From assembly GCA_964634945.1 (NCBI GenBank), contig CAZWMG010000009.1, positions 1,954 through 65,953 of the forward strand: a stretch of DNA of 64,000 bases. Direction: 5' to 3'. The stretch is from an uncultured Planctomycetia bacterium (GTDB taxonomy: Bacteria; Omnitrophota; Gorgyraeia; JABMRG01). The number at the start of each line of letters is the position of its first letter. The stretch's first letter is position 1. Of this stretch, positions 8,484-11,356 are shown piece by piece. Position numbers and translations under genes: made by a program. The notes below the pieces were generated by a model, which had not been told where the DNA came from, ran no database searches, and was given only the letters and a program-made list of their open reading frames with translations.

Positions 8484-10859
8484 TTATTTTCTGGTCAACC
8501 TTAAATGCGTTATTAGTATATATATAATAATAATCAATATGCCTATTGCGCTAATCACGGAGCCTATCTTAAAGCTTATCGGGTCATAAACAAACAGGAT
8601 GCTATGCTTTCCGGCAGGAACCTTGATCCCGCGGAGAAAGAAGTTTGCTCGGTATATCTCCACCTTTTCTCCGTCTATATATGCCTTCCATCCCGGATAA
8701 TAGGTATCATTAAGCAACAAGAACGCCTTTGCCTTCGCGGAGACCTCTATCTCAACCTCTCTTGGATTATATTTTGTTATCTCGACAGCGTCTTGTCTGA
8801 CTCTCGGCTCTTTTTTACTAATATCACTACTAGAAGAGGTAATATCTGAGAACTGCGCCTCTCTACTAAAAAGTATTTCCTTTTTAGGGTTGAATTTGCG
8901 CGTAGACATATAATCAAGCAGCTTACTGTCATCATCAAACACGATAGACTTTCTCAATAGCATGACCTTTGGTAGATGGCGCTCATTAAGGTAGATCGTC
9001 GCATGCCCTGTACTATTTACTTTTTTGTAGCCATAGCAGTTGAGGCTATCATGGCTTGATATATATTTTATGCTCAAGAGATTAAGCAGGTTTGTATTAA
9101 TCGGCGTCTCGGACCTATAGATAAGTTTGGCTATCTCGTTATTACCATCTAGTTTGCTCGAATCATAACCCCATGCATCATATATATCAAACTCCATCAT
9201 GCGATTATTTGCGAGTAGATCCTTTGATGTCTCTACCGCTTTATGCAACGATTCCCCGCGTATTATGGAAAACTTATCGTAAGAATAAGGTGAGGGCAGA
9301 ATCCGGAAATGCGATTCATCCCGCATAATATAGCTAATATTTTTAGTTGGGCTCTTAAAATATTCTATCCTTTCGATAAAATTGTAATCTATATTAGTGA
9401 AGAGTAGATCAAAACCCATTAATAAAAAGACCGGCACAATGATAAGGTTTCGTCTCCTGGTGCGCGAACAGAGAAATAAAAATACCCCAAAAAGGCTTAC
9501 ATAAAGAAGGGTTCTTCTCAGATTAAATATATCCGCATATACGAATGAACTGTCCGAATGAAATGCGTCTCTTGCGAGGCCCATAATAAAGGCTATTATC
9601 TTCGCGGGCATAGTCATCAGCACGATTATCAATAACGTCGATAAGAAACCTAATACCAGAAATATGGAACCCGCTCTTCTTGCTCTGGATGTGGCGATAA
9701 TCTGCCTCAACGAGTCAAGGCCTATGCCGCAGAGCGCGCAGATGGCAAATGTAAATATGAAGATAAATCTTACGGGATAACGTATAAGGTCAAAACCCGG
9801 TACGAGCTTAAAAAGAAGCGGGAAAAGAATAAAATGCCTTCCCAATGATATTGCTATGGAAAAAACTCCAATCGCAAAAAGAAACCATACGATCCTTTTG
9901 CGCCTCTTGTAATAGAGCGCAAATCCCGCGAGCAGGATAGTAATAATCCCGAGATAGTAATTATCCAGCCACTTTTGTCCGTCGAGAAGATTGTCACTAA
10001 AAAGCGCCGGTTCATTAAAATATGGGATAATAAAACTCAATAGGTGATTATATGGTAAGCTCCATGCCGATGCCTCCTGCCACCCCATGGCCTTTCTTAC
10101 AGTGATTGAATAATATTCTATCGCTGGTAATGTCTGAAATGCCGTAATTAGAAAAAAAGTTACAATCGCGATAAGAAAGCTATAGATTATAAAGAGATCA
10201 ATTTTCTTATCTGTTAATAATCTCTCGGCAAGAAGATACGCGCTTACACCAAATAATAAGAATCCTGTAATAATAAATGCCGGTGGGTCTCCTCCAAGAA
10301 ACATAAGAGAAAGTACAGCGCCTAAGGCTATAGAAACAAGATAGCCACGGCTCTTTAGCGCTTTTATAAAAATAAGCATTACTAGCGGAAACCATGTAAT
10401 AGAACTTAAAACCGTTGTCAGGCATATAGTCGAGATAACGTAACCGCTGAACATAAAACTAAACCCTGCCAATATTCCACCTAGCTTAGATGTTCCTATT
10501 GAGCGGGCAAAAAGATACATAAAGACTCCACATAAAAAGATATGCAGAATTATAAAAAAACTAAAGCCCTTGGCAAAGTCACCTATATAATAAATAAACG
10601 TCAAAGGATAAAAGACCGCGTGGTGGATAGAGGCGTGGAGCGGCGCACCACAGAATATATAAGGGTTCCACAAGGGCGCTTGAAGGCTCTTGATGCTTTC
10701 AACGGCAAGTTCTCTTACCGGAAGGTATAGCCTCGCTATATCCCTTCTCGCGAATATGTAATCTGTAAAGATCACCTCTCTGAAAACTATGCATAGTAAC
10801 GCTACAAATAGTAACGCGACCAATATAACATCTCTGTTTTTGTATAAAGATTTTATCAT
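8484..10859 (-). CDS. YfhO-family polytopic membrane glycosyltransferase (GT-C fold), immediately downstream of the pilin gene
   Basis: 791 aa with about 13 TM helices in the N-terminal 480 aa, typical YfhO N-terminal sequence features, and a large C-terminal extracytoplasmic domain. The family is assigned by pattern, not by search. Confidence 0.65.
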   Translation of the reverse strand: MIKSLYKNRDVILVALLFVALLCIVFREVIFTDYIFARRDIARLYLPVRELAVESIKSLQAPLWNPYIFCGAPLHASIHHAVFYPLTFIYYIGDFAKGFSFFIILHIFLCGVFMYLFARSIGTSKLGGILAGFSFMFSGYVISTICLTTVLSSITWFPLVMLIFIKALKSRGYLVSIALGAVLSLMFLGGDPPAFIITGFLLFGVSAYLLAERLLTDKKIDLFIIYSFLIAIVTFFLITAFQTLPAIEYYSITVRKAMGWQEASAWSLPYNHLLSFIIPYFNEPALFSDNLLDGQKWLDNYYLGIITILLAGFALYYKRRKRIVWFLFAIGVFSIAISLGRHFILFPLLFKLVPGFDLIRYPVRFIFIFTFAICALCGIGLDSLRQIIATSRARRAGSIFLVLGFLSTLLIIVLMTMPAKIIAFIMGLARDAFHSDSSFVYADIFNLRRTLLYVSLFGVFLFLCSRTRRRNLIIVPVFLLMGFDLLFTNIDYNFIERIEYFKSPTKNISYIMRDESHFRILPSPYSYDKFSIIRGESLHKAVETSKDLLANNRMMEFDIYDAWGYDSSKLDGNNEIAKLIYRSETPINTNLLNLLSIKYISSHDSLNCYGYKKVNSTGHATIYLNERHLPKVMLLRKSIVFDDDSKLLDYMSTRKFNPKKEILFSREAQFSDITSSSSDISKKEPRVRQDAVEITKYNPREVEIEVSAKAKAFLLLNDTYYPGWKAYIDGEKVEIYRANFFLRGIKVPAGKHSILFVYDPISFKIGSVISAIGILIIIIYILITHLRLTRK

Positions 10860-10942
10860 AGATTAATTTTTTAGAATTAGTAAAAAGGGGAATGGCTTGA
10901 ACCAACCATTCCCCTTAGACTCAAATTCAAATTCTTAAAAAA

Positions 10943-11356
10943 CTACCAGAGAGATACGTCCTCTGTGCCATCTGAATACGCGCCACACTGGCCCGCCTGC
11001 GTACCTGAGCCTGTGACATACCACCAGCCATAAGTAGCGCTTGTTGTGTTTGTGCCCGCAACCGGGGCCGCTACAAATGTTATATCTGTTTTTTCATTAA
11101 ATTCATTCCTAGGATACTTAGCACCCAAAAAATCGGTTACTGTCAATGTGGGGAAGTCTGTTCCGCTGTTATTCGCGATACGGTTTGAATATTTGATAGC
11201 AACCGCTGAACGAACGGCTCCTAGGCCCCCTTTCGTAGCCGCGATCTCCGCATTGTTTGTAAGATCAACAAATTTTGGCAATGCTACCGCCGCTAAAATG
11301 CCGAGTATTACAATAACCATAACAAGTTCTATTAATGTAAAACCTTTACTACGCAT
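10943..11356 (-). CDS. pilA: Type IV major pilin (class III signal peptide, PilA-like)
   Basis: N-terminus MRSKG|FTLIELVMVIVILGILAAVALP is the canonical prepilin peptidase site (G-1, F+1, E+5). The C-terminal region is Ser/Thr-rich and has only one Cys, so there is no D-region disulfide. Confidence 0.85.
   Translation of the reverse strand: MRSKGFTLIELVMVIVILGILAAVALPKFVDLTNNAEIAATKGGLGAVRSAVAIKYSNRIANNSGTDFPTLTVTDFLGAKYPRNEFNEKTDITFVAAPVAGTNTTSATYGWWYVTGSGTQAGQCGAYSDGTEDVSLW

Follow-up and report, generated by a model that had tools for sequence, protein, structure and literature searches.

YfhO-family GT-C proteins encoded behind type IV pilin genes in Omnitrophota and other uncultured diderms: candidates for pilin O-glycosylation

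It is already known that the glycosyltransferases that modify type IV pilins can be encoded after the pilin gene pilA, as is the case for TfpO and TfpW. To our knowledge pilin glycosylation has so far come from a few Proteobacteria and from two types of enzyme, TfpO/PglL and TfpW, and we know of the YfhO family only from Gram-positive bacteria. Here we describe a 64,000-nucleotide stretch of DNA (hereafter the window; contig CAZWMG010000009.1 of assembly GCA_964634945.1, positions 1,954 to 65,953) in which the gene of a probable major type IV pilin is followed directly by that of a 791-residue protein of the YfhO family. We propose that this protein is a periplasmic GT-C O-glycosyltransferase dedicated to the pilin and supplied with sugar by a polyprenyl-phosphate carrier, a reading to which we would give a probability of roughly 65%. 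The source of the window is a diderm of ~40% G+C content (GC) with genes for LptE, a BamD-like protein, Lnt and MurJ, and its nearest named homologues are from Candidatus Omnitrophota; as a diderm member of the Omnitrophota it would not be expected to make teichoic acids.

Several described systems resemble this locus in part. TfpW, the arabinosyltransferase of group IV pilins in Pseudomonas aeruginosa, is encoded right after pilA and is a polytopic GT-C protein that carries a DDX motif and, in the periplasm, a C-terminal TPR domain (bioRxiv 10.1101/2020.04.19.049825). As in the window, a polytopic GT-C gene lies immediately 3' of the major pilin gene and a terminator follows pilA (PMC11841053), and TfpW would further share with the proposed enzyme a periplasmic active site, an acidic motif in the first loop, a lipid-phosphate-linked monosaccharide as donor and Ser/Thr residues of the pilin globular domain as acceptor. 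The two belong to different GT-C subfamilies: where TfpW combines its DDX motif with a TPR domain, the window protein matches YfhO, carries RD in place of DDX, and has no TPR but a beta-sandwich domain and a C-terminal transmembrane (TM) helix. TfpO/PilO and PglL also modify pilins in the periplasm, and tfpO too is found directly after pilA, but these are O-antigen-ligase-like proteins (Wzy_C) that transfer preassembled oligosaccharides linked to undecaprenyl pyrophosphate, whereas the window protein is of GT-C type with no match to Wzy_C.

The Pfam YfhO match and the GT-C fold are shared with PgtC2 and PgfM1 of streptococci (with GtrB/PgfS), which O-glycosylate Ser/Thr-rich regions of extracytoplasmic proteins from undecaprenyl-phosphate (Und-P) sugars, the donor, Und-P-Glc or Und-P-GalNAc, being made by a partner of glycosyltransferase family 2 (GT2) (PMC12041528). 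These are Gram-positive systems, however, whose acceptors are the disordered Ser/Thr-rich tails of many membrane proteins and adhesins and not pilins, their genes sit with the GT2 synthase where the window gene sits with that of its proposed acceptor, and the relationship in sequence is remote. The Pfam namesake is YfhO of Bacillus subtilis, which acts with CsbB (and GtcA); there, as among the wall teichoic acid enzymes of Listeria, a GT2 synthase, a flippase and an extracytoplasmic GT-C enzyme work together (PMC5836110), but the acceptor is teichoic acid and the genes of the GT2 and flippase partners are absent from the window locus. An earlier note on this DNA, made from the letters alone, had described YfhO as a family that acts on teichoic acids, which holds for Firmicutes but is too narrow, as PgtC2 and PgfM1 are protein O-glycosyltransferases: YfhO enzymes were first defined through teichoic acids (PMC5836110), and work of 2018-2025 has established the family in streptococcal protein O-glycosylation as well (PMC12041528).

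Linkage of pilin and YfhO-like genes

The pilin open reading frame (ORF; 10943-11356, minus strand, 137 residues) and the large YfhO-like ORF (8484-10859, minus strand, 791 residues, ATG start) lie on the same strand, as do all genes in this region of the window, the YfhO-like gene being 3' of the pilin with a spacer of 83 bp between them. This is the arrangement that the earlier note had put forward as a candidate pilin O-glycosylation system; the two ORFs and the family match bear out the gene order, and the proposal itself finds support in synteny, in the GT-C fold and its first-loop Asp, in a hairpin between the two genes and in the sharing of this position with proteins of TfpW architecture. 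The probable major pilin begins MRSKGFTLIELVMVIVILGILAAVALPKF, with a hydrophobic helix and the canonical short prepilin leader MRSKG/FTLIELV (G-1, F+1, E+5), and it is matched by Pfam N_methyl (4.8e-8), by NCBIfam IV_pilin_GFxxxE (4.6e-8) and, at its N-terminus, by GspG and PilA models; it also carries a conserved GWWY motif and a C-terminal Trp.

Orthologues of the pilin occupy the same position in related loci (L001-L008). Homologues of the YfhO-like protein were located by exact-sequence look-up, and the order pilin, YfhO-like gene, PilMN, PilO, PilP-like gene is found in L001 (68% identity to the 791-residue window protein), L003 (66%), L004 (48%), L005 (45%), L006 (36%) and L007 (34%). 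In L008, from a metagenome-assembled genome (MAG) of Thermodesulfobacteriota (29%), the pilin followed by the YfhO-like gene is kept, with a secretin and PilB next, and the 741-residue relative of L009 (P0039), again 29% identical, is found without pilus linkage.

A forward scan of one genome per GTDB species gave 80 loci at 26-51% identity to the query, which were annotated with our own ORF caller, phmmer with the Pil proteins of the window and the prepilin motif. In 50 of the 74 loci with enough upstream DNA a pilin is encoded in the same orientation at a distance below 800 bp upstream, mostly at a spacing of less than 150 bp, and in two further loci (L038 and L061) a signal peptidase I gene stands between the pilin and the YfhO-like gene. 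Among the sources of the loci are Omnitrophota, "Planctomycetia" MAGs, Elusimicrobiota, Nitrospinota, Saganbacteria, an anammox planctomycete, Desulfobacterales, Syntrophaceae and Syntrophorhabdus. Relatives in several phyla, with identities between 90% and ~26%, carry the YfhO-like gene at their pilin loci, and it is linked there to the pilin and not to cell-wall or lipopolysaccharide (LPS) genes; neither of the two findings that the earlier note had named as refuting its proposal is thus seen. In a neighbour-joining tree of 96 YfhO-like proteins the Omnitrophota-type clade that holds the window's orthologues is pilin-linked throughout, only one member of a large Desulfobacterota/Syntrophorhabdia/Nitrospinota clade lacks the link, and the non-linked proteins are found in other clades; pilin linkage is a property of pilus-dedicated clades and not of the whole YfhO family.

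Downstream of the pair the gene content varies: of the pilin-linked loci, 39 extend for 3 kb or more on that side, and among these PilMN is found in 10, minor pilins in 14, a convergent PilB in 6 and no recognisable pilus gene in 18. Upstream, PilC is present in 22 of 26 pilin-linked loci. What is inherited as a unit is pilB-pilC-(regulators)-pilin-YfhO, and the partner of the YfhO-like gene is the pilin, not the pilus machinery. The same association is seen from the side of the pilin, as a reverse scan with the window pilin over metagenome contigs gave a further set of 80 loci in which 14 of the ~19 pilins that match through the globular domain and have enough downstream DNA are directly followed by a YfhO-like gene (L090-092, 094, 095, 097, 103, 104, 106, 109-112 and 114), compared with only 3 of ~45 pilins that share just the generic N-terminal helix. 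The association is therefore specific to the family of the window pilin and not general to pilus loci.

A different protein, of ~500 residues with multiple TM helices and C-terminal TPR repeats, is encoded right after the pilin in L116 (4476-5984), L125 (3625-5157) and L147 (1420-2913), and the same slot is filled in this way in L170 (6001-7479) and L171 (6001-7482); all five are Omnitrophota pilus clusters that are otherwise collinear with that of the window. This family (P0112-type) has ~90 close homologue clusters, mostly from Omnitrophota, a few of which are annotated as PMT_2 or TMTC_DUF1736, and Pfam recognises only the TPR part of the protein. Residues D38-D39 of the first loop are invariant, and a structural model (pLDDT 92.1) finds the GT-C enzymes STT3, AglB, ArnT, Pmt4 and PglB (TM-score 0.38-0.48) as well as TPR proteins. 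Two members, P0151 and P0147, picked solely for their long contigs, are both located in the same slot (X) in the order kinase, response regulators, PilB(MshEN), PilC, small protein, pilin, X, minor pilins, PilMN. Judged by the model and by the published features of TfpW, the ~500-residue proteins appear to share its architecture of a DD motif, a GT-C membrane domain and TPR repeats. Two unrelated GT-C types that alternate behind the pilin would be the pattern expected of a pilin-modification position.

It is conceivable that the window protein is an active periplasmic GT-C enzyme whose acceptor is something other than the major pilin, such as the minor pilins, the periplasmic parts of PilN, PilO and PilP, the secretin or an envelope polymer at the base of the pilus, in which case linkage to the pilin gene would amount to co-expression with the pilus operon. 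Minor pilins or PilMN do come after the YfhO-like gene in many loci of Omnitrophota type, the major pilin does not stand out in its Ser/Thr content (see below) and the YfhO enzymes of Firmicutes work on teichoic acids (PMC5836110). We nevertheless regard a different acceptor as unlikely: the major pilin is the sole constant neighbour, with nearly half of the 39 loci lacking any recognisable pilus gene downstream and PilMN in only 10; the linkage tracks the globular-domain family of the window pilin and not pili generally; and the slot is shared with a GT-C protein of the architecture of TfpW, which modifies the major pilin.

It would seem more improbable still that the YfhO-like gene modifies LPS or exopolysaccharide (EPS) and, having no biochemical tie to the pilin, is simply carried along with its changing alleles in a hypervariable island of surface antigens, and of the alternatives considered here this is the one to which we give least credit. 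Pilin loci are hotspots of horizontally exchanged cassettes (PMC11841053), the patchy spread of the pair across phyla suggests transfer, and in L004 LPS-type genes (Glyco_transf_9, GT2) are found 6-9 kb downstream. However, the window has no compositional break at the pilin/YfhO-like locus (GC 0.38-0.41) and no LPS or EPS genes flanking the pair, which lies inside the pilus operon, running from pilin to pilMN, with spacers of 10-150 bp even at 29-36% identity.

Some YfhO-linked loci have a more elaborate layout. Two or three tandem YfhO-like paralogues follow one or two pilin genes in L030 (3782-10514), L033 (1411-8274), L038 (1550-6366), L021 and L027, and because the matching copies of L030 and L033 pair in the tree the array is old; such paralogues may serve modification with several sugars or at several sites. 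The signal peptidase I gene of L038 (814-1503) was recognised by its Pfam match (Peptidase_S26, 7e-54), which was obtained from this copy only, and the inserted ORF of L061 (1945-2580) matches the L038 sequence over the compared stretch. Furthermore, L171 contains a minor-pilin-like gene (8282-9142, weak N_methyl) with matches to PT-HINT/intein-type domains; its pilin-like product may therefore harbour an intein or Hint domain.

Fold and candidate active site

The 791-residue protein matches Pfam YfhO (PF09586) in two stretches and at 78.2 bits is well above the gathering score of 28.5 (E 6.5e-22), precomputed PF09586 annotation is present on nearly all of its homologues, and no other Pfam family, Wzy_C and TPR included, matched it at E <= 0.01. 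An AlphaFold2 model of the whole protein, with 101 homologues in the alignment, has a mean pLDDT of 92.9 and a pTM of 0.93, and when it was compared with the PDB using Foldseek all 22 of the 22 best matches were GT-C glycosyltransferases (AftD, STT3, ArnT, EmbA/B/C, AftA and PglB), AftD leading with an E of 6.7e-7 and Pmt4 and ALG3 coming after them. A sequence search of the PDB with the same protein gave nothing meaningful, the best match being a phage head protein at E 1.7, and there was therefore no YfhO structure that could be used as a direct template or comparison.

In the model a positively charged N-terminus is followed by a TM helix (9-31) and a first loop with an amphipathic helix (40-57); the polytopic membrane core extends to ~490, a mixed and beta-sandwich domain occupies ~490-760, and a final TM helix (761-785) is followed by RLTRK. 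From the positive-inside rule for the N-terminus together with the model, the N-terminus would be cytoplasmic and both D40 and the ~490-760 domain would be periplasmic.

Residues R39-D40, in the loop after the first TM helix, are invariant in 19 pilus-linked orthologues (23-68% identity), as are P62, W64, N65, P66, H106, E248, R255, D484 and R519. In the wider family of 101 relatives, which reaches down to 18% identity, 87 of 98 have D at position 40 and another 4 have E, and W64 (97/98), R255 (92/99) and R519 (100/101) are similarly conserved. The catalytic hallmark of GT-C enzymes is an acidic residue in the first extracytoplasmic loop (Rismondo et al., PMC5836110), which makes D40 a candidate for the catalytic Asp, and with this residue and its fold the protein is probably an active, complete GT-C enzyme.

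The same fold could in principle serve without catalysis, as a pilin accessory built on a GT-C scaffold that acts as a chaperone or as an adapter into the assembly machine, in the way proposed for TfpY-like proteins. Terminator-bearing cassettes do also encode the non-enzymatic TfpX, TfpY and TfpZ (PMC11841053), and a first-loop RD in place of DXD would fit with such a role. Set against this are an Asp at the canonical GT-C position and periplasm-facing polar residues that are conserved from 100% to 18% identity, the extension of this conservation to relatives encoded beside Und-P-sugar synthases, and a fold that is complete and confidently modelled; an 800-residue polytopic enzyme scaffold makes an improbable chaperone, and we consider a purely accessory function very unlikely.

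Terminator hairpin, acceptor and donor

The 83-bp spacer contains an intrinsic-terminator-like hairpin (10880-10916, minus strand) with a GC-rich stem of 13 bp, a loop of 6 nt and a U5 tract, which reads AAGGGGAAUGGUU-GGUUCA-AGCCAUUCCCCUU and then UUUUA. A simple terminator scan missed the hairpin, which was revealed by reading the sequence and folding it; the fold has an energy of -25.2 kcal/mol (z = -4.06) and 0 of 200 shuffles were equally stable. Comparable GC-rich hairpins with U tracts are found after the pilin gene in L003, L005, L006, L090 and L097. Pilin-accessory cassettes commonly have a Rho-independent terminator behind the pilin gene, by which expression of the accessory gene is attenuated (PMC11841053), and with an accessory gene immediately 3' of the pilin and a predicted terminator between the two, the window pair appears to be such a cassette. 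By analogy the hairpin is likely to be an attenuator that sets a high ratio of pilin to enzyme.

The proposed mechanism starts from the conserved order of the genes, the hairpin, and the fold, topology and conserved first-loop Asp of the GT-C protein. Transcription of the pilin would be strong and the hairpin would pass a fraction of the transcripts into the enzyme gene, by analogy with pilA-tfpO/W/Y cassettes. The prepilin would be anchored in the inner membrane so that its globular domain faces the periplasm, as is established for type IV pilus biology. Going by what is known of the YfhO family, a GT2 enzyme of the GtrB/CsbB/ArnC/PgfS type encoded elsewhere would load a monosaccharide onto undecaprenyl phosphate, and the lipid-linked sugar would be flipped to the periplasmic face as in the pairs CsbB/YfhO, GtrB/PgtC2 and PgfS/PgfM1. 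The YfhO-like enzyme could then, via Asp40, move the sugar to Ser/Thr of the pilin globular domain before polymerisation. By analogy with TfpO and TfpW, the pay-off might be a pilus surface that is masked against pilus-specific phages, or adhesion that is tuned.

The proposed acceptor of the glycosylation is the pilin. That the enzyme would act on its cognate pilin is supported by co-inheritance, through a linkage specific to the pilin family and through the clades of the tree. A Ser/Thr-rich stretch towards the C-terminus of the pilin (TNTTSATYGWWYVTGSGTQ, residues 102-120), which the earlier note had pointed to as available for modification, is indeed present but is not distinctive. Beyond residue 30, Ser and Thr make up 21.8% of the 66 YfhO-adjacent pilins and 21.1% of the 108 pilins without YfhO, an alignment of the 66 has no strictly conserved Ser/Thr column, and the most Ser/Thr-biased columns, at positions 64, 90, 102, 115, 128, 131 and 135, are so at only 62-76%. 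Ser/Thr enrichment was therefore rejected as evidence for glycosylation.

These two pilin results, the near-equal Ser/Thr content and the missing conserved column, weigh against the protein being a pilin-dedicated O-glycosyltransferase, and further points do likewise. Glycosylation of the pilin is itself something we infer. The first-loop motif is RD and not the classical DXD or DDX. With the NCBIfam PgfM2 equivalog model, whose cut-off is 1500 bits, the protein reaches 28.2 bits and aligns only over residues 694-780, with no full-length match; its kinship to characterised protein O-glycosyltransferases is at the level of the family, and we make no claim of orthology to any of them. Some 24 of the 74 loci, or about one in three of the YfhO-like relatives, are in non-pilin contexts, and of the pilins that match through the globular domain about a quarter (~5; L099, L105, L107, L108 and L116) are without a YfhO-like gene next to them. 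Finally, the window (essentially all ORFs of at least 110 residues in 64 kb) contains neither a GtrB/CsbB-type synthase nor a GtrA-type flippase.

With regard to the donor, a TreT-like GT4 gene in the window (2214-3461) was considered and rejected, as it is of the cytoplasmic trehalose-synthase type. Among YfhO relatives that are not pilin-linked, that of L089 adjoins an ArnC/PgfS-like Und-P-sugar synthase (ArnC model 2.5e-76, PgfS 2.2e-56), and two more adjoin smaller GT2 genes, in L031 (PgfS 7.8e-23) and in L076 (Pfam Glycos_transf_2 only). These neighbours fit the polyprenyl-phosphate-sugar chemistry known for the YfhO family.

Wider occurrence and other features of the window

Taking all loci together, one may tentatively ask whether GT-C pilin glycosylation encoded in cassettes is widespread, ancient and modular in the type IV pili of uncultured diderm phyla (Omnitrophota, Elusimicrobiota, Nitrospinota, Desulfobacterota, Syntrophorhabdia, Saganbacteria and anammox Planctomycetota), with YfhO-like and TfpW-like enzymes exchanged for each other and sometimes with YfhO tandems; we would place this somewhat below even odds. 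If it were so, YfhO would be a major pilin-modifying family and tandem YfhO paralogues would build more complex glycans. Already if the YfhO-type enzyme modifies the pilin, the family would reach from Gram-positive teichoic-acid and protein glycosylation to diderm pili, and decorated pili would be present in 50 or more species-level lineages from about ten phyla that are poorly known. The slot from pilin to GT-C gene would then be a simple genomic marker to predict glycosylated pili in uncultured organisms. Pilin glycosylation alters how phages, hosts and surfaces perceive pili, and those of Omnitrophota are thought to serve attachment or DNA uptake; under the wider reading there would be consequences for phage resistance and host attachment in ultra-small, possibly host-dependent Omnitrophota. 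For this phylum the locus would provide a concrete and testable surface modification, and the pair of acceptor and enzyme genes is a natural choice for heterologous reconstitution.

A literature search found no report that links YfhO with a pilin or type IV pilus, nor the pili of Omnitrophota with a glycosyltransferase. The earlier note had called this a route not described before, and for the YfhO-type pilin-cassette link that description appears to hold, but the novelty has to be tempered because O-glycosylation of proteins by YfhO-type enzymes is already known in streptococci (PMC12041528). What appears to be undescribed are the YfhO-type partners of pilin cassettes in diderms, the pilus-dedicated clades across uncultured phyla and the alternation with TfpW-like enzymes. 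The association is solid and broadly distributed and it makes a testable biochemical prediction; it is not a new principle.

The pair is part of a type IV pilus-like cluster that, in addition to the genes below, contains a histidine kinase, a response regulator and a GAF-kinase. Upstream of the pilin are found, all on the minus strand, a PilB-type assembly ATPase (15747-17432, Pfam T2SSE 4.5e-146) with an N-terminal MshEN domain (4.7e-22) of the c-di-GMP-binding type, three minor-pilin-like proteins of 191, 261 and 255 residues (13365-15459) with hydrophobic pilin-like N-termini, the 261-residue one being matched by N_methyl (2.5e-6), and the PilC/GspF platform protein (11830-13041, Pfam T2SSF 1.6e-57). 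Directly upstream of the pilin is a GspG-like, pilin-like protein of 138 residues (11370-11786, minus strand; Pfam T2SSG 4e-4, NCBIfam GspG 2e-3) with the atypical leader ...NKTG/KSLIELIVI, which has Lys at +1. ORFs of 131-161 residues without a Pfam match lie between PilC and the pilin in L001 and L003, likened to this protein by size and position alone, and L004 and L005 have none. Downstream of the YfhO-like gene, and also on the minus strand, are a PilM-PilN fusion (6477-8162, Pfam PilM_2 2.1e-23 and PilN 1.3e-5), PilO (5896-6480, Pfam PilO 3.7e-10) and a PilP/GspB-like protein (5387-5890) with weak T2SSB and CdsD_C matches.

Between the YfhO-like gene and pilMN is a small membrane protein of 73 residues with two TM helices (8177-8398, minus strand), which matched no Pfam family and has homologues at the equivalent position in L001, L004 and L005. 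It is homologous (hhalign 97%, E 5.6e-11) to the C-terminal half of proteins of 140 residues, two of which are encoded in tandem right behind related pilins in L108 and L105. Either a flippase for the lipid-linked sugar or an accessory protein of the pilin might be encoded here.

On its far side the pilus cluster is adjoined by a pair of genes (2214-4131, minus strand) for a DUF5752 protein (3e-66) and for the TreT-like GT4 protein, which has a trehalose synthase N-terminal domain (1.2e-54); L005 also keeps these two genes beside its pilus cluster, with DsbD-like and AhpC/TSA-like genes next to them as in the window. A low-complexity protein of 162 residues, rich in Lys, Glu and Pro and of no family, is encoded between the response regulator and the DUF5752 gene (4154-4642, minus strand), and at this place L005 has an ORF of 166 residues without a Pfam match, likened to it by size and position alone. 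Elsewhere in the window, a PilZ-domain protein, ComEC (Competence and DUF4131) and a ComEA-like HHH_3 protein are encoded at 44544-46959 (minus strand), which gives the organism genes for DNA uptake, a process in which a type IV pilus could take part. Finally, a run of large ORFs that mostly lack Pfam families is found at 47801-63001 (minus strand; 851, 530, 1341 with TPR, 231, 1301 with PKD, 264 and 431 residues), of which the 231-residue one is GspC-like (T2SSC-like with PDZ), and this region may be a second secretion locus or a surface-protein locus.

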